From positions 64,001-128,000 of the IMG/VR virus record IMGVR_UViG_3300036792_000267: a stretch of DNA of 64,000 nt. One strand, 5' to 3'. This stretch comes from a virus. The translations under genes and the position numbers were made by a program. This document shows, one piece after another, positions 6,722 through 32,589 of the stretch (its first letter is position 1; each line of letters starts with the position of its first letter). The notes under the pieces are model-generated. The model did not search any database. It was not told where the DNA came from and was given only the letters and a program-made list of their open reading frames with translations.

Positions 6722-6764
6722 CCAGGCCCCCGGGACGCCCGTCCGCTGGGGGCCTGGTCCTTTT
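6722..6764 (+). terminator. intrinsic terminator between convergent genes
   Basis: CCAGGCCCCC / GGGGGCCTGG stem then TTTT. Confidence 0.6.
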
Positions 6765-7470
6765 AGGCGGCGGCCTCTAGCGCCATCCGGGCCTGGTGCC
6801 GCTCTATGTAGTCGGCTGCAGCCCGTAGCAAGTCGGGGTCGTCGTTGAACATGCCGAGAGCGACGTTGAGGTTCCGGCGGATTAGCCCGCGTAGGCATTT
6901 CCCGCAGCTCCGGTCACCGGGACAGCAACTGCGGTCGTGATCGACGGCGAGGGGGTAAACCTTGCCGGTGCGCTTGCTGACCGAGGTCTCAGGTCGGCCG
7001 CTGATCTCGCAGACGCCGGCCTGCTCAGCTAGTTTTTGGTCGTACCAGCCTGGCGGAAGGCTGTAGACACGATCTCGGTTCTTGGCCCCTTCGCCGTTTG
7101 CGCTGAGGCAGTCCCAGCATTTCCGGCGGTTCTGGTGAGTGGGGTTCACTCTGCAGGTGGCGCAGAGTTTCCCTTGCGCCCGGCAAGCTCCGCACTCGTT
7201 GCGCTCCTTGTCGCCGGGGCTCTTATCTCGCCCGCAGGTAACGCACTTGATTCGGCAGGCCGGGCAACGTTGAGCCTTTGCTCGGTTGTTGCCGCGGTAG
7301 GGCTGGCCGCATGATTCGCAGGGGCGTTCAGCTGTGGCGTATCCGCTGCGCTTACGGACTTTGGCGGCGGCGCACAGGGAGCAGTACGAGCTGAGGGCTC
7401 CTGATGGATAGCGGTGCCGTGGCCGCGTTTTGCAGGTCGGGCAGATGGGTTCGTTTCCGGAGACATTCAC
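6763..7470 (-). CDS. endonuclease VII-like homing endonuclease with zinc-ribbon repeats
   Basis: many CxxC; QAGVCEISG...LAVDHDRSCC...CLRGLI...N.ALG.FNDDPDLLRAAADYI. Confidence 0.85.
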   Translation of the reverse strand: MNVSGNEPICPTCKTRPRHRYPSGALSSYCSLCAAAKVRKRSGYATAERPCESCGQPYRGNNRAKAQRCPACRIKCVTCGRDKSPGDKERNECGACRAQGKLCATCRVNPTHQNRRKCWDCLSANGEGAKNRDRVYSLPPGWYDQKLAEQAGVCEISGRPETSVSKRTGKVYPLAVDHDRSCCPGDRSCGKCLRGLIRRNLNVALGMFNDDPDLLRAAADYIERHQARMALEAAA

Positions 7471-7646
7471 ATTCTCTACTACGTCTGGCCGACTTACCGA
7501 TTAGACGGGGCAAGCGCTCAGGCGTTAGGCCAGCCAGGTGGCTCCTCTACGAGGGAGCGGCGCAGGCCGGGCTCGGAACTTCGGGTCGCTGTGGAACTTA
7601 ACAGCACCTGCCGGCAATGGTCGGCTGACCGGAGGAGGTGAGCCCG

Positions 7647-8883
7647 ATCCCTGACATCAGTCTTTTGGAGCCCGTAGTGCTCCGAGGGGTCGTTTTAAGT
7701 TGAGAAGTTTGTAACGCCAGAAACGTTGCTGCTGCTCAACCGCCTGGACCAGACCCCGTGGCCCTTCCCGTCCGCCACCTGGGACGTGGTGAAGGGATCG
7801 AGAGCGGTCGCCAAGCCGAACGTGCCCAACTCTGAGGCGCACATCATCTCCCGGCTCGGCAGGAGCCAGGAAAGCGCGAGCTTCATCTACTTGCGCGAGA
7901 AGAAGGTCTTTGAGCCGACCACGCTGCACTGGCTGCGGACGCCGGGCGAGATCGCCCGCATCAACGCCGAGCGCGCGGTGCTGAGGGAGATCAACGACCT
8001 CAACCAGCGGTTCGACAACTTCGCCGAGTGGAGCGCCTGGCAAGCGCTGGGCGGCGCGATCCAGTACAACTACGGCGACGTCCAGGCCCTGGTGGACTAC
8101 AAGTTCCCGCGCAGCCACTTCGTCACCCCGGCCACGCCGTGGGTCACTAACACCGCGCTCGGCTACTACACCACCGGCGGCGCCACCGCGGCCGGCGCGG
8201 GAACCAACAGCGGCCAGCCGGGCCAGCCGACCACCCTGGGCCAGGCCCAGACCTCGCTGACCGCGGCCGGCGGCACCATCACCTACGCGACCCCGGTGTC
8301 GATCATCGAAGACGTGCGGTCGTGGAAGCGGCTGCTGGCCGTGCACGGCCGGGTGCCGGCGAAGGAAGTTTTCGCCACCAGCGTCACCATGGCCGGCCTG
8401 ATGGAAGCGTGGGTGTCCGCCACGCAGGCGTCTACCGTGTCGATCCCGGCGACCATGATGAGCGACCGGATGAAGGACGAATTTTACTCGACCGGCATCA
8501 TGACCGGCTTCATGGGCCTCGTCTGGACCACGGTGGAGCAGGTCTTCGAGTCCGACCTCGGCAACCTGACCTTCTTCGTGCCGGATGGCATGATCTACCT
8601 GGGCAACTACACCGACCAGCGGCCAGTGGAGGTCCTGGTCGGCCCGACTGCCGACGACGAGGCCCCCGAAGGTTTTACCGGAAAATATGCCAAGACCTGG
8701 AAGGAGAAGGACCCGTCCGCTCGTCAGTACCTGTTGGAGTGGCACATGCTCCCGATCATCACCAGGCCTGAGCAGATGCTGGTAGCCACCAACGTCATCT
8801 CTGCGGGCGGCAGCGTCACCGTCCCGGCCGGCTACTACAACGGCGGGGCCGGCACTGGCGGAAGCAACGCGCCGGTCGACTAG
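7647..8883 (+). CDS. major capsid protein (lambda gpE-like), interrupted by a 7-nt coding gap at 7695-7701
   Basis: GGAGGTG RBS then (ATC)PDISLLEPVVLRGVV, resuming in +1 frame EKFVTPETLLLLNRL; C-terminal KTWKEKDPSARQYLLEWHMLP typical of gpE-type capsids; alternative start GTG 7638. Confidence 0.85.
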
Positions 8884-22359: not shown

Positions 22360-22493
22360 CTGCGTAAGCTGGCTGTTGGCTGAGGAAGGCCGAGAACGGC
22401 GCGCTTGGGCACAGGGGAGACCCTGAAGCGCGCCGTTCGCATGTCCGCCGATTGTCCCGGCATCAGCCCCGAGAGTCCCTGAGAGGACCCGTT

Positions 22494-23174
22494 ATGCCGG
22501 ATAACAGTGAACTGGATCGTATCGATCCACAGCCGGAGACGTGCAAGCTGTCCACCGGCTTCGAGGTCGACATCGTGCGGATGCGCACCCGCCAGTTCTT
22601 CCGCTTGCTGCGCGTGCTGACCCACGGGGCAGGCCCCGCGCTCACCCAGTCCGGGCTCGACTTCGCGGCCGGAGGCGAGGAGTTCACCCAGAAGCTGCTC
22701 ATGCTCGTGGTGATGTCCATCCCCGACGCCGAGCAGGAGGCCATCGGCTTCCTGGCGTCAATGTGCCGGCCGTCCGGCATCACGGACAAGGCTGCCTCCC
22801 AGCTGACCAAGCAGGAAAACGAGGCCAACCAGGCGCTGTGGACCCGGTTCAACGAGGAGCTGCACAACCCTGACCTGGAGGACACCCTCGACCTGGTTGA
22901 GATTATCGTCCGGCAGGAGTCGCCTGAGCTGCAGGCCCTGGGGAAAAAACTCCAGCGGACGTTCAAGATCTTCCAGGCGACGGGCCAGGACAGGGAGGCC
23001 CCGGAGCCGGAGGCGAGCCCGCAGGAGATCAACTCGCCGGAGCGTTCGCCTCAGCTTTCGACGTCCTCAGCCACGAGTACGGGTGGACCGACGAGTACGT
23101 CCTCGACCTCCCGGTCTGCCGGCTCCGGCAGTGCCTCGAAGCGGCGGGCGCACGCCGGAAGCGAGAGCAGCTAA
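22494..23174 (+). CDS. tail assembly chaperone (gpG-like)
   Basis: between tube and tape measure; S/T-rich tail overlapping a -1 frame ORF. Confidence 0.7.
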   Translation: MPDNSELDRIDPQPETCKLSTGFEVDIVRMRTRQFFRLLRVLTHGAGPALTQSGLDFAAGGEEFTQKLLMLVVMSIPDAEQEAIGFLASMCRPSGITDKAASQLTKQENEANQALWTRFNEELHNPDLEDTLDLVEIIVRQESPELQALGKKLQRTFKIFQATGQDREAPEPEASPQEINSPERSPQLSTSSATSTGGPTSTSSTSRSAGSGSASKRRAHAGSESS

Positions 23175-23506
23175 GCCGCCTGCGGCTGGCCGAATGGCAG
23201 GTGAAGATGGTGTGCCAGTTCATCGGCGCGCAGGCCATGGTGGACACCAAGGCGCACGGCGGCAAGAACCCGCTGGTGGAGCTGGCCGCATCCATCGACA
23301 TCTTCGGCGGCAAGTCCCCCGAGGAGCAGGAGCTTGACCGCATTCGCGGGCCGAAGGTGGCCGACTCGGTTGAGGACGACCCGCGGTTCGGCAAGGTGGC
23401 CGCCGACCCCGACGCCGGCGTGGAGGCCGCGAATGCGAGCGGTTCGTATGAGGCTTTCATGGCCATGATGGGCGGACCGCCGCCTATGCCGGGCCGCGGG
23501 GGGTGA
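22940..23506 (+). CDS. tail assembly chaperone extension (gpT-like, -1 frame)
   Basis: -1 frame open from GGGGAAAAAA at 22940 through FDVLSHEYGWTDEYVLDLP to TGA 23506; exact shift site uncertain. Confidence 0.6.
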   Translation, partial: GEKTPADVQDLPGDGPGQGGPGAGGEPAGDQLAGAFASAFDVLSHEYGWTDEYVLDLPVCRLRQCLEAAGARRKREQLSRLRLAEWQVKMVCQFIGAQAMVDTKAHGGKNPLVELAASIDIFGGKSPEEQELDRIRGPKVADSVEDDPRFGKVAADPDAGVEAANASGSYEAFMAMMGGPPPMPGRGG

Positions 23507-23528
23507 GGGCGTGGGCGTAGTAGTCAGC

Positions 23529-24230
23529 ATGGTACGTAATTCATCAATGCTGTCCGACGAGTCTTGGCTGCGCGAGCGCTACCTCGTTGACGAACTGTCC
23601 ACCACCGCCATTGCGGCGCTGGCCAACTGCTCTCAGGCCACGGTGTGCAACCGGCTGGCCGGGTACGGAATCCCGCGGCGTCCCCGAGGTCGCTTTACGC
23701 AGAGCCGGATCGACGCTGACGGCCGAGAGTGCACGGCTTGCGGTGACTACAAAGCGTGGAACGAGTACTCGCCTAGCAAGCCGACGCAGCCAGGCGGCCG
23801 GTACTCCGTCTGCAAGGTCTGCTGGAACGGCACGCGCGGTGGCGGCCCCGGTAACCGGAATGGCGAGTACCGTGCGTGGGCACTCAAGCGCATGGGCATC
23901 ACGCAAGCCGAGTACGACTGGCTGCTAGCCCTGCAGAAGGGCGTGTGCGCTCTCCATGGTGGCCCGGAGACTAGGAAGGGTGCGCTGTACCTTTCCGTCG
24001 ACCACGACCACAACTGCTGTCCGCCGGTAAAGGTCGGGCAGACCCGGTGCTGCAAGAAGTGCATCCGCGGCCTGCTCTGCCACGACTGCAACCACATGGT
24101 CGGCCTAGCTGAGAAGCTAGGTCAGGCGTGGCGGTTCCCTGATTACCTGGGCTCGCGCCCCTTCATGGGGAAGGGGGTGGTGCTCATGACGCCTTATTCT
24201 GAGCCTCTGAGCCACAGTTGTGGCTTATGA
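23529..24230 (+). CDS. endonuclease VII-like homing endonuclease with N-terminal HTH
   Basis: WLRERYL...IA...GIPRR; QKGVCALHG...LSVDHDH.CC...CIRGLLCHDCN. Confidence 0.85.
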   Translation: MVRNSSMLSDESWLRERYLVDELSTTAIAALANCSQATVCNRLAGYGIPRRPRGRFTQSRIDADGRECTACGDYKAWNEYSPSKPTQPGGRYSVCKVCWNGTRGGGPGNRNGEYRAWALKRMGITQAEYDWLLALQKGVCALHGGPETRKGALYLSVDHDHNCCPPVKVGQTRCCKKCIRGLLCHDCNHMVGLAEKLGQAWRFPDYLGSRPFMGKGVVLMTPYSEPLSHSCGL

Positions 24231-27200
24231 GGGACCAGAATACTGGTTAGATCGCTTTGGTATGTAATTTACAAGGCGATCGGTTTAACATTCAGGTGAC
24301 TTCGGCGACCTGATGCGGGACGCGGCGCAGGCTAAGGCCGCGCTGCAGGGGATGGGCGATGCGGCCAAGGCGGAGACCGCGGCCGAGGTGGCGGGCGCGA
24401 CCCAGGCCGCCGCCGCGCGCGGCAAGGGCATCACGTCCATCCAGCAGGAGACGCAGGCCCTTAACCAGCTCGCCAACGCCGCCAAGCAGACCAACGTCCA
24501 GCTGCTCTACGGCGGCCGGAATGACATGACCCAGCACCTGAGCGACCTGGCTCAGGAGCTGAACTACACCACCTTGCTCAACCGGCAGAAGTGGCTCGGC
24601 TTCTCCTCCGTCCAGCAGGCCATGTCGTACCGCCAGCAGATGTATAACCTGGCGCTGCTGGAGAACAAAGCGCACTTCGCCGGCTACCTGACCGCGGACC
24701 AGTACCTGGGCTTCCTGCAGCGCGAGACCGCCCAGACCGCGGCGCTGTCGGCCGCCATCCGCGACCGCAGCGCGGCCATCGGCGCCGAGACCCAGATGCT
24801 GCTCGCGCACGCCAACGCGCTGCAGGGCACCCACGCGACGGCAGGCAGCCTGGGCGAGGGCCTGAGCACGGTCAACGCCTACAACGTGGCGCTGGTCGGG
24901 CTGCCGGACACGGTGGTCACCAAGGCCGTCCTTGATGACAGCCAGGCGATGTCGCAGCTGGCTGCCTACCGCGCGGCGCTGACCTCGCTTCCCAACGCGG
25001 AGACCACCGACATCACCTCGGTTGCCACCCGGCTGGGCGGCGTCCCGCTGACGGGCGCGCGCCAGGCGGTGCCGGTCAGCGTCCGCCCCGAGATCGACTA
25101 CGCCGCGATCAACAAGATGCTGTCCCAGGCGGTCGCCGGGGCGCACCCGGAGGCGCTGCGCGCGCCGCTGGCCATCACCGGGTCGGGAGCGGCGGATTCC
25201 GCGCTGTCGGCCACGGCGGATTCCGCGCTGTCGGCCACGGCGGACGACGCCGGCGCGCTGTCGGCGTCCATGTCCGAGCTGAGCGACAAGGCGGCCATTT
25301 CCGCCGAGGCAATCAGCAAGTTCCAGGACTCCCTCGCGCTGGCCGCGGTCGACGCCCGCGCGCTGGAGCAGGGACTCGGGCGCCTGTCGGCCGCCGAGCA
25401 GCTGCTGTCTGAGGTTAACGCCCAGTTCGTGCCGCAGAAAGGCCGCAAGAAGGCGGCGGCTGCCGACCCGGCGCAGAACCTCGCTGACCTGTACGGGCTG
25501 CAGGACGTCGCCGGCGCGCTGCGCGAGGGCGCGATCTCCGACGCGCCGCGCGGCTACCCGCTGTCCGCCCCGGGCATGAAGATCATCCCGCCGACGCAGG
25601 CGGGAGAAGAAGACCTGTGGTCGGGGCTGTCCAAGTACATGCAGGGCGGCAAGGCCGCGGGGACTGCCACCGAGAAGGTTGCCGTCGAGGGCGGCCAGGA
25701 GGCCGAGGCGACCCTCGACAAGATCGCCGTCCAGATGGAGTGGCTGGACCATGAGGATGCCAAGCCGAAGCTAGAGCTGGAAGGCGGCCAGGAGGCGCTA
25801 GACGACGCCTACCACCTGGACGGCGTACTCGTCGGCCTGACTTACGAGCGCGCGGAGCCGGAAGTCGCCCTGCAAGGCGGAGCCGAGGCGCTGGGAGAAG
25901 TCACCGCCCTGGACGAGGGGCTGCACGAGATCCCGCACGAGACTGACACCGTCCTGGTGGTCGAGTCCTCCGGGGCCTCCAGCGAGGTCCGCGATTACAG
26001 CCGCGACATTGAGGACATCGAGCGTGAGGTGGGCACTCGCGCCGACTTCGAGGACACCGAGGCGGAGAGCGGGCTGTCGCGCTGGCTGACCGCCCTGGCT
26101 GCGGCGGTCCAGCACAAGTACGACTTCTACGCCAGCTTCAACGACGACGCGGCCAAGGCCGAGCTGGCCGGGTGGATCAGCGAGCTTGAGGCGGCACGCG
26201 CCGAGGAGAACCGCATCACCGCCGGCATGGGCGGTGCCTCCGGTGGCGGTGGCGGCGGAGGGCCGCCTGTTCCCCCTGCTGCCGCCGGCGACGCGCCCAA
26301 CCCGGATGACCGGGCGATGTGGGAGGCCGTCGCCGCCGAGATGGCCAAGGTAGACGCCCTCTTCAAGAACACCGGCCGTGACGCCGCTGCCGCCGGGGCC
26401 GCCGCGTCCAAGGCCGGCCGGGACGGCGCGCAGGCGGTCACCTCGATGGTGCTGCCGCTGACCAACGGCGCGCGCGGCTGGTTCGGCCTGCTCACCCAGG
26501 TCAACCTGTTCGGCGGCCTGCTGCCCGGCATCCTGGGCCACACCACGGCCCTGCACTTCGTCCTTGACGCGATCATCGAGACGATCGCCATCCTGCTGCC
26601 GGCCATCGTCACCATGGCAGCCGGGCTGACCGCGTTCGGCATCGCTGGCTACGACGCCGGCAAGGCGGTCTACGAGCGCCTGACGGCGATTCACACCGCG
26701 GCCGACGCCACCGGCCAGTCCATCCCGCCGCTGACCGGGAACCTGGAGAAGCTGCACGACACGGTGCGCCCGCAGGTCTGGCAGTTGTATGGCGACGCCA
26801 TCACCGTCGCGGGGGCGAAGTCCGGGCTCTTCAACCAGCTGGCCATCCAGACCGGGAACGTGGTCGACCGGCTGGCCGCGCGGCTGACGGTGGACCTGGT
26901 GCAGGGTGGCCAGGGGCTGAAGACGTTCCTGTCGGTCGGCGCGGAGAACCTGGCCAAGCTCGGCACCATCTTCGACAACCTCGGCAAGGCCCTGATGGCG
27001 TTCATCAAGGTCACCGAGGACACCCACATTGACCAGATTTTCCTGGCCATCTTCGTGGCGCTGTCCCAGTTCCTGGTGCTCATCACCAAGCTGCCCACCC
27101 CGTTGCTCGCCGCCGTGGTCGCGCTGCACGCGTTCTGGCTGTGGGGCGGCCTGCTGGCCACCGTGGTCCTGCAGATGCTCAACCCGCTGCGCTCGCTGGC

Positions 27201-30200
27201 ACTGGCGCTGGGCGCGGTCGACGCCGCCTCAGTGAACGGCGGCCTGGCCAGCCTGACCAAGGACGCGTCGGCCTGGCAGCGGCTGAAGGCCGGCCTGACC
27301 GACATCGCAGCCGGGTTCGGCGCACTGCCGGCCCGGTTCAGCCTGAGCAGCAAGGCGGCCGGCGAAGCTGAAGTCGCCTTCGATGACATGGGCAACGCGC
27401 TGGTGGCTACTGACGCGGAGATGGCGGCCGGCGCCACGTCCGGCGGCGGCCTGCTCTCGGTGCTCGGGCGGCTCGTCCCGGCCGGCGGCGCTGCCGCCGG
27501 GGCTGCCGCGCTGCTGGGCAGCGCGCTGGCCGCCGCCTACGTCTACCTGGCGCTGCTGCCCGACGCGACCCAGAAGTGGATCAACTCCCTCAACCAGACG
27601 CTGGCTAAGACCACCGCGTTCACTGTGGTCTCCGCGACGGTCGGTGACCTGGCGGCGGTCACCCAGCAACTGGCAAAGGCCCAGGCCGACGGGACAGGCA
27701 ACGCCTCTGAGCTGGCCGGGGCGCAGCGCGGCCTGTCCAGTGACCTGTCCAACGAGCTGGGGCACGTCGGGGCGGTGTCCAAGGCTTACGGCACCGACTT
27801 CCTGGGCGCGCTGGAGCTGCTGAACGCGGCCGGGGTGAAGACCTCCGACATCTTCTCCGCCCAGGGCAAGGCCTGGGAGGCGGACCTGCAGCAGGTCCAG
27901 GGCCTGGTGCAGGGCTACAAGGCGATGGGCCAGGGGCTGTCCGCGCTGCAGCAGGACGTCTCGGTCCAGCTGGTGACCACCAGCGACCAGGTAACCGCCA
28001 TGGGCAACCTGAACAAGGCCTGGGACGCCTGGACCAAGACCGTCGGCGGGGCCCCCAGCACGTTCATCGCCCTGGCCCAGGGCTTCGCCACGTTCAACAC
28101 GGATGCCGCGGCGGCCGGGGCCGCTATGACCGGGCTGAACGCGCCCAGCCTCACCCTGCAGAGCGACTTCCAGTCCAACTACAACAACGTCCAGGCGTTT
28201 TTCGACGCGTTCCGCAACGACCAGGCGCTCACCGGGGCGGGCGACTTCACCAAGTTCGTCAAGGACGCGGTAGCCAGCCTCATCCCGATGGCGGGTGGCT
28301 CCAAGGAGGCCGCCGCCCAGATCTCCGCCCTCGCCCAGGAGGCCGGCGGGCCGGCCACGACCAACATCAAGACGCTGCAGCAGTGGGTCGGCAACATCAA
28401 GGACCCGCTGCTGCAGATGTATAAGGCCAGCAATGACGCAGCGATCGGGGCCTCAAGCCTGAGCCAGGACGCGGCCCGGCTGACCTCCACCCTGCAGCAG
28501 CAGCTCAACCCGGCCATGGCATCGGCCATCTTCAACGCCCACGGCGGCCAGGCCGTCTTCAACGCGTTCGCCGACGCCCTGGCCAAGGGCGGGCCGAGCA
28601 GCGGCGCGACCATCACCGCGGCGCACAACGTGGCCCGCGAGCTGCTGGCGGTGTCCGGCTCCAGCGCTAACGCCAAGGCGAACTTCGTCGGGTTCACCGA
28701 GGCGATGGGGCTGAGCGCCAAGCAGGCTAACGCCCTGTGGGCCCAGGTCACCAAGATCCCGGCCAACGCCAGGACCACCTACACCCTGGACGCGGAGCAG
28801 GCGCTGCAGAAGGCGGAAAAGCTCTCCGCGGAGCTGCCGCACCTGACCGGCCAGAAGAAGCTCCAGGTTGAGGCAGAGGTCAAGGACCTGCAGTTGCAGG
28901 CCATGAACGACAAGCTCAAGGCCGCCAAGGGGGACGTCAGCGACCTCAACAACGCGAGCCTGAGCAAGCTGCGCGGCCAGCTCGCGTCCACCGCCGGCTC
29001 TGCGGCCGACCTCGTCAAGCCCGGCGAAGTCGACACCATCCTCAAGTCGTTCAAGGACGGCACGTTCTACGAGGTCACGTTCCTGGCGTGGATTCCGCAG
29101 GTCCAGCGCGCCCTGAACGTGGTGAACCACGATGTCGGGCAGTTTTTCGCTCATGACATCCCGGTGGCGTTCGGCGTCACCAGCCACGCCTTCGAGGCGG
29201 CGTGGGACGGGATGGTCAACTGGTTCACCCAGTCGGTGCCGCACGGGCTGGAGACGGCCTGGGGCACCGTGTCGTCGTTCTTCGACAAGGCGTTCACCCA
29301 CGACATCCCCGCGGCGTGGGACTCCGCCTGGGGCACCCTGGTCTCCCCGGTCACTCACGCGTTCGATGACGTGAAAACCTGGGTCTCCTCCAATTTCGAC
29401 ACCTGGTGGAAGACCCATGGCCAGGGCGTCATGGCCATCTGGGACACCTTGTGGGGGGAGATCTCCGGGGCGGCCATCAAGGCGTTCGACCTGGTAGAGA
29501 CCGGGGCCACCGGCTTCCGGCACGTCCTCACCGCCATCTTCACCAGCGGCCCCGTCAAGCAGGTCTGGTCCGGGTTCTCCGGTGCAGCCGCCGACACCTG
29601 GCATTTCATCGAGTCCCTGGCCACTGCCGCCTGGCAGATGGCGGTCGCCGGCGCGCGGGCCACCTGGAACGAGGTCGCCGCGCTAGGCAAGGCGGCCTGG
29701 GACCTGGTGGTCGCGGCGGCCAGGGCTGCCTGGGACATCATCTGGGCCCTGATCGGCGCCGAGGTCAAGTCCGCGGCAGCCATCGCGACCGCGTCGTTCA
29801 AGGTGCTGTGGGACCAGGTGGTCGCGCTGGCCAAGGTCGGCTGGGACACCATCGTCCTGATCATCAACGAGGTCATTGACCTCTTCACCGGGCACTGGGC
29901 CACGGCGTGGAAGGACCTGCAGGCGTACGGCATCCAGGTGTGGAACGCCGTCAAGACAGCCGGCATCCAGACGTGGAACGCGATCTCGACTGCGGCGACC
30001 CAGGTGTGGAACGCGATCTGGAACGCCGTCAAGACGGCTGCCACCCAGACCTGGAACGCGTTCAAGACCGGCGGCCAGCAGGCGTGGTCCGCGATCTGGC
30101 ACTCGCTGCAGGCCACGTTCATCAACCCGCTGGCGGCTTTCTTCACCTCCACCGTGCCCAAGTGGTGGGACAGCTTCGCGAACTTCGCGTCCTCTACCTG

Positions 30201-32589
30201 GACCAAGGTGTGGTCCGGCTTCCAGAAGAACGTCCTGCAGCCGATCGAGGGCTTCTTCACCTCGACACTGCCCAACGCCATGTGGAACTCCCTCAAGGGC
30301 GGGATTGACCACGTAATCTCCGGGCTGAACACGGTCATCGGCTGGATCAACGCGGTGACTTCGGTCGTGGGCGTGCACATCTCCCCGATCTCGATGCTCG
30401 CGGCCGGCGGCGTGGCCCCGCAGCGGATGGCGCACGGCAGCGTGCCGGGGACGGGCGACGAGGACGGCACGCACATCATCGCGATGGGCGGGGAGTACAT
30501 CCTGCGCAAGCCCGCCAGGATGGCCCTGCAGGCCGCCTACGGGCCCCAGTTCCTCGATGAGCTGAACCAGGCGGACTCCTGGCTGGGCTCGGGCTCGCGC
30601 GGCAGCACGGCCACCCAGCAGCGCCGTCCGGGCCGGTACGCGTCCGGTGGCATCCCGGTCATCTCCGACATCGGCAACTGGCTGGGCGACGCGGGCAGCG
30701 CCGTCGCCGGGGCCGCCTCCTCCGTCTGGCACGGCGTCGCCGACGCGGCCGGCGAGGTCGCCAAGTTCGGGGAGAAGGCCGTCTTCGACGCCATGTGGTC
30801 GGTCTCCGGCGCCCCGGCGGAGAAGGCGATGGAGGCGCTGGGCACGCCCGGTGACATGGGCGCGGCGTGGCTGCAGACCATCCACAACGGGGTGGAGAAC
30901 TACGTCACCGCCCAGACCGCCAAGGCGCAGGCGTCCAGCAAGTCGACCGGCTCCATCACCGGCGCCGGGGTGTCCAACTCCTCGGCCTACGCGGCCCTGC
31001 AGTCGGCGGCGGCCAAGAAGGGCTGGACCGGGGCCCAGTGGGCCGCGCTCAACGACGTGGAGATGGCCGAGGCAGGCTACAGCCTCACCGCCACCAACCC
31101 GAGCAGCGGCGCGTACGGCATGGCCCAGTTTATTAACGGACCGGGAGAGTACGCACAGTACGGCGGTAATTCGACAACAGCAGCGGGACAAGCGGTAGCG
31201 ATGGTAAATTACATCGCACAAAGATACGGAAATCCAGAGAGCGCATGGGCTCATGAGGTCGCGTACCACTGGTATGCCGCAGGCGGGCCGGTCATCGACG
31301 CCATCCGCGCCGTCACCGGCAACGTCAACGAGCAGGAGGCGATGGCCCTCGGCTCGTGGCTGCTGACCAGGATGAACCCGGCGGGTACCGCGCCGCACTA
31401 CAGCGAGTCCGGGGCCTGGCTGATTAACACCGCCAAGAACAAGGCCGTCACCCAGACGCAGGCGCTCAACGCCAACAACGCTGCCCGGTACCTCGCGCCG
31501 TACTACGCCAAGGCCATCCTCGGGTCCACCCCGGCGTCGTGGAAGGCGACCCCGGCGACCGCCGCACTCAAGGCCGACGCCGCCGTGGCCGCCGCTACCG
31601 GCACGCACTGGTCCACCCCGTCGGCCGCCACCCTCGCAGCCGGGTGGAACGCCGTGTCGACCGACCTGGGCCCGGCCGTCAAGCAGGTCACAGCGGCGGC
31701 CAGCACCAGTGACACCGCCGCCTACCAGGCTGCTGCCGCGCAGCTGTACCCCGACTGGGAGGGCGCGCTCAACCCCTGGAAGACGCTGAGCGCGCTCCAC
31801 CAGCCCAAGGGCGTATCGGCCCCGGACTGGGCGTCGTGGCTGGCCCAGCGCGCCGTCATCGCCAACCGGGTGAGCGTGGCCGGCAGCTACGTCGCGCCGC
31901 TGTTCGATGACCTGAAAGTCAACCCGCAGGAGCTGACCGCGGCCATGTGGTCGCACACCGACTCCAGCGTGCGGCGCTGGCAGGCGGCGATGGACGTGGC
32001 CGGCTGGGCCAAGTCCAAGGAGCCGGCGCTCTACAGCCCGATCCAGTCCAACCTGGCCAAGCTGGAGCCCGAGATCGTCAAGGCGGGCAACGCGTGGATC
32101 AACGTCTGGGGCACCACCCATACCCCGCCGCCGGGCGGAGGAGGCGGGTCCTCCGGCGGCGGAGGCGGAGGCACGATCGGCCCCGGCAGCGGCCCTGGTG
32201 GCAGCGCCGGGTCTACGGTCATCGACCTCGCCCCGCTCATCACTGGCGGCCCCAAGGTGGCCAACGCCGGGGATTACGGCTTCAACATTGCCGCGGGCGG
32301 CGGTGTCCCCGGCAATGTCGCGGCGATGTTCTCCGGCGGCATGGCCATGGCGGCTGGCGGGGTGGTGCCCAACCTGTTCGTGCCGGGCCTGTCGGCCAAC
32401 CTTTCGCGGCAGCTCACCGCCGCCACCTCCGGCCAGTTGCCGCGCACCCTGTCGGATGCGGCCGGCAACCGGGTGGGCCTGCAGGTCGAGAACCTGACGA
32501 TTTCCAATCCTGTTGCCGAAAAGCCGTCTGACTCCATCACCAGAGCCAGCAACAGGCTGGCATTCCTTGGCGGGAGGGGGATGGTCTGA
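24220..32589 (+). CDS. tape measure protein with lytic transglycosylase domain, two N-terminal coding gaps (24247-24260, 24285-24297)
   Basis: 2758 aa ORF from 24313; Trp-periodic repeats; EAGYSLTATNPSSGAYGMAQF SLT motif; reconstructed start MAYEGPEYW|YVIYKAIG|DFGDLMRDAA. Confidence 0.9.
25192..25239 (+). repeat. 24-nt tandem duplication in tape measure
   Basis: GCGGATTCCGCGCTGTCGGCCACG x2. Confidence 0.9.

Follow-up and report, generated by a model that had tools for sequence, protein, structure and literature searches.

Probable UUA-triggered translational bypassing at the 5′ end of a soil phage tape measure gene and its association with homing-type nuclease genes

We analysed a 64,000-nt window (bases 64001-128000) of the phage genome IMGVR_UViG_3300036792_000267, a complete IMG/VR record of 151,377 bp with terminal repeats and 68% G+C, derived from a soil metagenome assembly. 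Positions are given in window numbering unless marked as genome. In this window, the first 22 codons of the gene for the tail length tape measure protein are divided by two inserts, each of which begins with TTA, and the gene is likely to be read by UUA-triggered translational bypassing. This reading is carried by the anatomy of the 5′ end, the intact homologues, selection on the three frames, the rarity of TTA codons and the matching layout seen in the terminase gene carried by Streptomyces phage phiHau3; from these we infer the bypass and its efficiency. The best-supported interpretation is bypassing of the phiHau3 kind in a gene and a phage lineage new for it, and newly linked to homing-nuclease cassettes.

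Two TTA-led inserts in the first 22 codons

The open reading frame (ORF) at 24313-32589 was assigned to the tail length tape measure proteins by matches to PHROG 4200, 1272 and 58 (E 1e-20 to 1e-13); a Pfam-A search with the 2758-aa protein gave no match. Upstream of the ORF is a tail assembly chaperone gene (22452-23174, PHROG match), and this gene order fits a tape measure gene. The 5′ end of the gene consists of the following parts:

24220..24246, plus strand: coding segment 1, GTG start and 8 codons, MAYEGPEYW; take-off codon 1 is TGG 24244-24246
24247..24260, plus strand: coding gap 1, with the A-site TTA at 24247-24249, a spacer to 24257 and the landing codon TGG at 24258-24260
24261..24284, plus strand: coding segment 2, TAT GTA ATT TAC AAG GCG ATC GGT, YVIYKAIG; take-off codon 2 is GGT 24282-24284
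24285..24297, plus strand: coding gap 2, with the A-site TTA at 24285-24287, a spacer to 24294 and the landing codon GGT at 24295-24297
24298..32589, plus strand: coding segment 3, GAC TTC GGC GAC CTG (DFGDL), then the in-frame ATG 24313 and the 2758-aa ORF

The shift is 14 nt at gap 1 (11 nt between the two TGG codons) and 13 nt at gap 2 (10 nt between the two GGT codons). Read without a hop, the frame from GTG 24220 runs into the stop TAA 24265, and after the first hop without the second it ends at TGA 24297-24299. Joining of the three segments gives a product of 9 + 8 + 2763 = 2780 aa with the N-terminus MAYEGPEYWYVIYKAIGDFGDLMRDA. A sequence-only reading of this stretch had described both the TGG/TTA/TGG and the GGT/TTA/GGT arrangement and had proposed two serial hops leading to a protein of this length. 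Its layout and coordinates proved exact to the base, the TAA at 24265 is indeed met on straight read-through, and the structural proposal is strongly supported, as the intact homologues encode the predicted 22-residue extension.

According to the mechanism that we propose, translation would start at GTG 24220 and, once MAYEGPEYW is made, the ribosome would stall, its P site holding Trp-tRNA on UGG and its A site the near-unused UUA. The peptidyl-tRNA would then detach, the mRNA would slide by 14 nt, and re-pairing at the next UGG would allow reading to resume as YVIYKAIG. In the second hop, Gly-tRNA on GGU, again followed by UUA, would re-pair at the next GGU 13 nt on, yielding the 2780-aa protein with the N-terminus of the uninterrupted relatives.

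In 16,422 codons of long ORFs there are only 7 in-frame TTAs, and these all sit either in 5′ parts with a weak coding signal or at the ends of genes. A cluster of 37 tRNA genes, located shortly before the window (genome 56197-62595), covers most codon families and includes Trp-CCA, Gly-GCC, Gly-UCC and three Leu species. Neither Leu-UAA nor Leu-UAG was present among these 37 genes, and the same was true for five related genomes, gapped or intact. The presence of tRNA-Leu(UAA) was thus rejected as a feature discriminating gapped from intact genomes, being absent from all six. We also determined how often the motif arises by chance. A codon followed by TTA and by the same codon again (shift of 4-16 nt, not a multiple of 3) was found 51 times in the window vs. 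52.2 ± 7.3 times in Markov shuffles, and pairs of such motifs within 60 nt were found twice vs. 1.2 times. As the bare motif is at chance level, the evidence lies in the comparison with relatives.

A hairpin was predicted between gap 1 and the codons preceding take-off 2:

24250..24281, plus strand: predicted RNA hairpin, 5′ arm GAUCGCUUUG at 24250-24259, 3′ arm CAAGGCGAUC at 24272-24281

The 5′ arm of this 10-bp structure comprises gap 1 and the start of landing codon 1, and the 3′ arm, formed by the Lys-Ala-Ile codons, ends 1 base before take-off codon 2. The hairpin was predicted in all five loci with gap 1, at -15 to -16.6 kcal/mol, a value reached by 0-2 of 500 shuffles in which only the gap was permuted. 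Sequence changes within it keep or improve the pairing: U.G became U-A in L002 (L numbers denote the related loci), U.G became C-G in L007 and L024, and G-C became A-U by changes on both sides in L019. Hairpins at each gap alone were no better than those of shuffled sequences (z -0.6 to -1.0). Pairing of mRNA behind the ribosome was proposed as a driver of forward movement in phage T4 (10.1101/2024.12.09.627546). The hairpin described here would form only after the ribosome had slid about 13 nt past take-off codon 2, thus behind the ribosome, and may in this way favour the forward direction. Hairpins abutting the take-off codon were also predicted at the capsid site described below and at phiHau3 g7/g8, as structures without an assessment of significance.

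Intact and interrupted relatives

Scans of IMG/VR and of JGI soil metagenomes gave 20 related tape measure 5′ ends, and a protein search added 1 more. Eight loci were intact (L006, L008 = L016, L009, L012, L014, L020, L023 and L041). In all eight, the distance from the start codon to the Met of MRDA is exactly 66 nt (22 codons) in a single frame encoding MAYEGPEYWYVIYKAIGDFGDL. The intact starts are mostly located behind the Shine-Dalgarno (SD)-like sequence GGAGGTGA or a variant of it, and the gene caller independently started P0002 at MAYEGPEYW. Homologues that start at MRDAAQ, named in the sequence-only reading as the finding that would speak against it, were looked for; the intact homologues carry the upstream 22-residue extension instead.

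Thirteen loci were interrupted, with inserts of 4-16 nt at six codon positions. In every interrupted locus an in-frame TTA is the first codon to leave the conserved peptide; most inserts close with a copy or a synonym of the preceding codon. The inserts are listed below as take-off codon, spacer and landing codon:

Site Y8, L021 and L022: TAT, T, TAC; shift 4
Site W9, window, L002 and L003: TGG, TTAGATCGCTT, TGG; shift 14
Site W9, L007 and L024: TGG, TTAGATCGCC, TGG; shift 13
Site W9, L019: TGG, TTAGCCAATCGCC, TGG; shift 16
Site V11, L015 and L018: GTT, TTAG, GCC; shift 7
Site K14, L011: AAG, T, TAG; shift 4
Site G17, window: GGT, TTAACATTCA, GGT; shift 13
Site G17, L007: GGT, TTAACATCCA, GGC; shift 13
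Site G17, L024: GGT, TTAATCCCCA, GGT; shift 13
Site G17, L004: GGT, TTACCCA, GGT; shift 10
Site G17, L005: GGA, TTAGCTC, GGT; shift 10
Site G17, L019: GCT, TTAACAC, GCT; shift 10
Site G20, L010: GGT, TTAACCT, GGC; shift 10

At Y8, W9, G17 and G20 the landing codon repeats the take-off codon or is a synonym of it. In L019, where residue 17 is Ala, both codons are GCT, which constitutes covariation of the two positions. At W9 the arrangement is always TGG...TGG, and the shifts of 13, 14 and 16 nt represent both frame classes. It is thus the landing codon, and not a fixed frameshift, that sets the frame, and re-pairing at the next TGG serves all of these loci. The inserts of L011 and L015/L018 have the 10-mer TTAGGCCATT in common.

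These observations also bear on the alternative that programmed -1 and +1 ribosomal frameshifts take place inside the inserts, with the insert residues partly translated, which we regard as very unlikely. A 14-nt shift amounts to -1 and a 13-nt shift to +1, and for the 4- and 7-nt inserts (L011, L015/L018, L021) decoding of TTA combined with a +1 shift would be as simple as a hop. However, there is no slippery heptamer in either gap, the +1 frame directly after the GGT of the second site opens with TAA, and the W9 gaps would need a -1 shift in the window but a +1 shift in L007, L024 and L019. Frameshifting would also leave the matched and covarying take-off and landing codons without a role. 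In the phiHau3 system, the junction peptide detected by mass spectrometry in E. coli, with UAA replacing UUA, had no gap-encoded residues, and a +1-frame stop in the gap caused no loss of recoding (Antonov et al. 2023, PMC10732093).

To characterize selection on the split frames, we compared the loci after removal of the gaps. This restored the same 22 codons in 13/13 interrupted loci, with no stop or extra indel. Variable sites at first, second and third codon positions numbered 7/6/18 in the interrupted vs. 8/6/14 in the intact loci, and the pairwise codon differences comprised 626 synonymous and 193 non-synonymous ones. Almost every change in segment 1 among the gap-bearing loci is synonymous. 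In the five loci with two gaps, the intervening 24 nt vary by 4 third-position changes, all synonymous, and by GGT to GCT, the latter mirrored at the landing codon. Judged by these substitution patterns, the joined peptide is under purifying selection in all three frames.

Nuclease genes beside the gapped genes

Exactly three Endonuclease VII genes occur in the genome, all of them next to a gene that is TTA-gapped in its first ~20 codons:

23511..24230, plus strand: Endonuclease VII-family gene, 239 aa (Pfam PF02945, E 6e-12; PHROG endonuclease VII), next to the tape measure gene
6763-7470, minus strand: Endonuclease VII gene ~170 nt upstream of the gapped major capsid gene, on the opposite strand
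L042:291-890, genome 39190-39792: Endonuclease VII gene directly upstream of a gapped PD-(D/E)XK nuclease gene

The first of these genes sits between the tape measure gene and a 101-aa gene (23201-23506). It ends with the sense codon TTA 24225-24227 followed by TGA 24228-24230, a stop codon that overlaps with the start of the tape measure gene. The window and loci L002/L003, L011, L015 and L019 carry an Endonuclease VII gene at this junction, L007 and L024 a remnant of such a gene of ~100 nt, and L010 an HNH gene; in L004, L005 and L021/L022, as in the intact loci, the junction holds no insertion. In 8/8 intact loci the Endonuclease VII gene is absent, and the neighbour of the tape measure gene is a member of the 101-aa family or a small ORF. 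In L018, a 235-aa ORF (L018:576-1280) is inserted exactly where the others carry HNH or Endonuclease VII. Searches of Pfam and PHROG with this ORF and with a 183-aa ORF of L022 returned no family; the former may represent an unrecognised homing nuclease family. In total, 8 of the 12 distinct interrupted loci have a nuclease gene or its remnant directly upstream, L018 would be the ninth, and none of the 8 intact loci does.

The other two gapped genes show the same type of insert. In the major capsid gene (Phage_cap_E; stretch 7629-7730), GTT 7692 is followed by TTAA and by GTT 7699, a shift of 7 nt, and the junction is unbroken in five relatives (L036-L040), which encode MPDISLLEPVVLRGVV-EKFVTPE. 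The PD-(D/E)XK nuclease gene is broken at genome 39812, where CAT, TTAG and CAT follow each other. As a separate observation, the capsid gene appears to start at ATC 7647 (ATT or GTG in relatives), behind GGAGGAGGTG; this would be an unusual ATY start for a capsid gene.

We searched the whole genome for further hops with a model of codon log-odds, for which 34 long ORFs served as the training set and which replaced a scan of G+C at third codon positions that had been swamped by antisense frames. The search recovered hop 2 of the tape measure gene and missed the capsid and nuclease-gene sites, at which few codons precede the gaps. Two other matches were rejected: that at genome 15469 is a TTATG overlap at a gene junction and not a hop, and that at genome 45871 (window -18129; TGG, TTA..., TGG, shift 20) is probably due to chance, as a 1020-codon frame is already open in the landing frame.

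An assembly error or a dead genome, with inserts that are artefactual or inactivating, has an extremely low probability. The source is a metagenome assembly, which would leave room for artefacts. Against this, independent assemblies of different samples, with diverged flanks, contain the same gaps (window, L002, L003, L007, L019 and L024), the 151-kb genome is complete with terminal repeats, and three essential genes share the type of insert.

In a tree of the next 190 tape measure residues, the gap states are scattered among intact alleles. From codon ~17 on, L011 and L015 share 99-100% identity across 900 nt, compared with just 67-80% in their first 60 nt, and they differ both in nuclease lineage (46% identity) and in the site of the gap. 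This swap pattern indicates that the nuclease travels together with the gapped 5′ end as a unit. Since the gaps track homing-type nuclease genes, a selfish-cassette origin is indicated. From this association, the gaps would be part of a mobile cassette in which a homing-type nuclease gene is combined with ~50 nt from the start of the tape measure gene. Their persistence is probably due to disruption of the nuclease target site without harm to the protein, as in T4 gene 60/MobA.

It had been proposed from the sequence that serial hops multiply and secure the low copy number that a tape measure needs. This rationale finds no support: close relatives make the same protein with one gap or none, the gene for the most abundant virion protein, the major capsid protein, is also TTA-gapped, and the gaps track inserted nucleases. 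A steep dependence on UUA decoding is possible.

UUA-led inserts recur at six positions in one 22-codon stretch and in three genes of one genome. On this basis we tentatively put forward a broader hypothesis, which we judge to fall slightly short of an even chance. The inserts could be immunity scars of diverse homing-nuclease cassettes (Endonuclease VII, HNH and at least one unassigned ORF) in large soil actinophages. Each cassette would consist of a nuclease, an initiation region serving the essential gene behind it and that gene's first ~50 nt, bearing the target-destroying insert. Bypassing would have been recruited repeatedly, with the hairpin coupling both hops and perhaps a third hop from the nuclease frame.

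Translation start and comparison with known bypassing systems

Initiation of segment 1 appears to involve the region upstream of GTG 24220:

24170..24230, plus strand: probable initiation/coupling region of the tape measure gene, SD-like sequence and ATG, with a presumed role in initiation

The strong SD-like sequence GAAGGGGGTGGTG at 24170-24182 serves ATG 24186, which lies in the frame of the nuclease gene 3′ end and opens 14 codons in that frame, ending GGC TTA TGA across the tape measure start. L007 and L024, from which the nuclease body has been deleted, retain this ~100-nt nuclease 3′ end. The end of the nuclease frame over the tape measure start could reflect either termination-reinitiation coupling or a third hop. 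A candidate for the latter leads from GGC 24222 to GGA 24232 in the window, and the codons are perfectly matched in L015 (GGC/GGC) and L011 (GAG/GAG). If true, such a hop would give the N-terminus MTPYSEPLSHSCG-PEYW.

A different start forms the core of the remaining alternative, in which the gap-bearing phages begin the tape measure protein at ATG 24313 and the upstream 93 nt are a remnant or a leader with short regulatory frames, nothing being joined. We consider it unlikely. In its favour, this ATG is invariant in 19/20 loci and has the SD-like AGGTGA (24294-24299) 13 nt before it, GTG 24220 has no SD of its own, and cassette transfer into varied backbones could import synonymous diversity. 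As to the view in the sequence-only reading that ATG 24313 lacks a clear ribosome binding site, a motif is present at 13 nt, but it is no more than the Gly-Asp codons that the intact relatives also have. Against this start, L019 does not have the ATG; its peptide reads DFGDLKKGA, with Lys-Lys-Gly-Ala instead of MRDA, so that the downstream start is unusable in this locus. The three upstream pieces keep the peptide in 13 loci with no stop or extra indel, and the changes in the 24 nt between the gaps are third-position and synonymous. The gaps are better conserved than their flanks, which would be unexpected for junk: TTAGGCC is identical in L015 and L018, and the first 30 aligned nt of the gene in these two loci are 73-83% identical to the nearest intact relatives. 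The similarly gapped capsid gene, finally, has no in-frame ATG or GTG start until TTG 7726.

Several observations weigh against bypassing as proposed here or against its link to cassettes. GTG 24220 has no SD within 12 nt, and as ATG 24313 is kept in all loci but one behind AGGTGA, a shorter product made by internal initiation is possible. The landing triplets TAG (L011) and GCC (L015/L018) do not match the take-off codon, and cognate re-pairing is thus not the whole rule. The 'hunger' for UUA is presumed from codon avoidance. The synonymous pattern could in part have been inherited from intact alleles by recombination and not have evolved after the gaps; the 24-nt piece between the gaps, with its 5 changes only, argues against such import. 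As to the cassettes, L004, L005, L021 and L022 are interrupted with no inserted nuclease upstream, and the phiHau3 gaps adjoin no nuclease, the sole HNH gene of that phage being located 1.4 kb upstream of the terminase gene.

Bypassing in the phiHau3 large terminase gene across two 10-nt UUA-led gaps was proposed in 2013 (Smith et al., as cited in PMC10732093), and the same type was described for StrepC.1 and S. catenulae prophages (PMC10732093). Antonov et al. (2023) obtained the full-length phiHau3 product in S. coelicolor, and bypassing in that phage is backed by reporters as well as by mass spectrometry (PMC10732093). We checked the phiHau3 sequence and found GGC, TTACTCC, GGT and TCT, TTAACGG, TCC, both with a shift of 10. 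The likeness to the tape measure gene is extensive. Both belong to high-GC actinophages and have an in-frame UUA after the last conserved codon, a short non-coding block and a cognate landing codon. Both also carry two serial gaps in one gene, with an uninterrupted, conserved junction in the homologues and take-off after Trp and Gly residues. The differences concern the gene (tape measure, with capsid and PD-(D/E)XK nuclease genes in addition), the unrelated 151-kb phage lineage and the position of the gaps, which lie here in the first 17 codons and 24 nt apart vs. ~100 codons apart in phiHau3. Shifts are 4-16 nt vs. 7-10, a hairpin joins gap 1 to take-off 2, and the gaps are linked to inserted nuclease genes.

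For the T4 gene 60/MobA cassette, the insert that is bypassed was described as protecting against the nuclease and as persisting longer than it (Bonocora et al. 2011 as cited in 10.1101/2022.08.31.505936). The tape measure gene resembles gene 60 in its matched take-off and landing codons and in having the bypass close to the gene's 5′ end, shortly downstream of a free-standing nuclease of the homing type. As in that cassette, the nuclease decays or is lost and the bypass stays (remnants in L007/L024, none in L004, L005, L021 and L022), and the cassette occurs in otherwise near-identical backbones; by analogy, the inserts may protect from cleavage here too. Unlike T4, where a 50-nt gap, an A-site stop codon and a long nascent-peptide signal are involved, the gaps here are 4-16 nt long with a rare sense codon. 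Just 9 residues would be made before hop 1, and the nuclease belongs to the Endonuclease VII family (HNH in L010) and not to MobA.

The mitochondrial 'byps' of Magnusiomyces capitatus and hops at hungry or stop codons in E. coli are mentioned in PMC10732093. They are similar to the events proposed here in that the peptidyl-tRNA re-pairs at a matching downstream codon when the A-site codon is slow or unassigned, and in the many inserts per genome. The byps, of ~27-55 nt, reside in mitochondrial genes; the hops in E. coli occur at a low level and in engineered sequences. The literature that we searched contains no account of UUA bypassing in a tape measure gene, nor of a link to nucleases.

Programmed bypassing is among the rarest departures from standard decoding, for which T4 gene 60, the mitochondrial byps of yeast and, with partial experimental support, the phiHau3 terminase are the few natural systems. 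For the UUA type, the present phage lineage amounts to a natural mutagenesis series, with varied insert positions and shifts, matched and unmatched landings, covariation, compensatory hairpin changes and intact controls. The suggested origin of the inserts, protection from adjacent homing nucleases, would join the T4 gene 60/MobA and phiHau3 models, which the literature has kept apart (contrasted in PMC5009743). As gene callers truncate or split such essential genes, annotation of metagenomic phages misses their true starts.

With respect to its relatives, no tape measure relative was detected among cultured phages by near-identity and protein searches, and no prophage relative in a scan of one genome per bacterial and archaeal species. 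The sole match to a cultured phage was the capsid, with that of Microbacterium phage Magritte as the nearest (48%). Finally, the chaperone ORF upstream of the tape measure gene (22452-23174) is overlapped by an ORF in another frame (22897-23337); the region 22452-23337 has the usual layout of a G/GT-type programmed frameshift.

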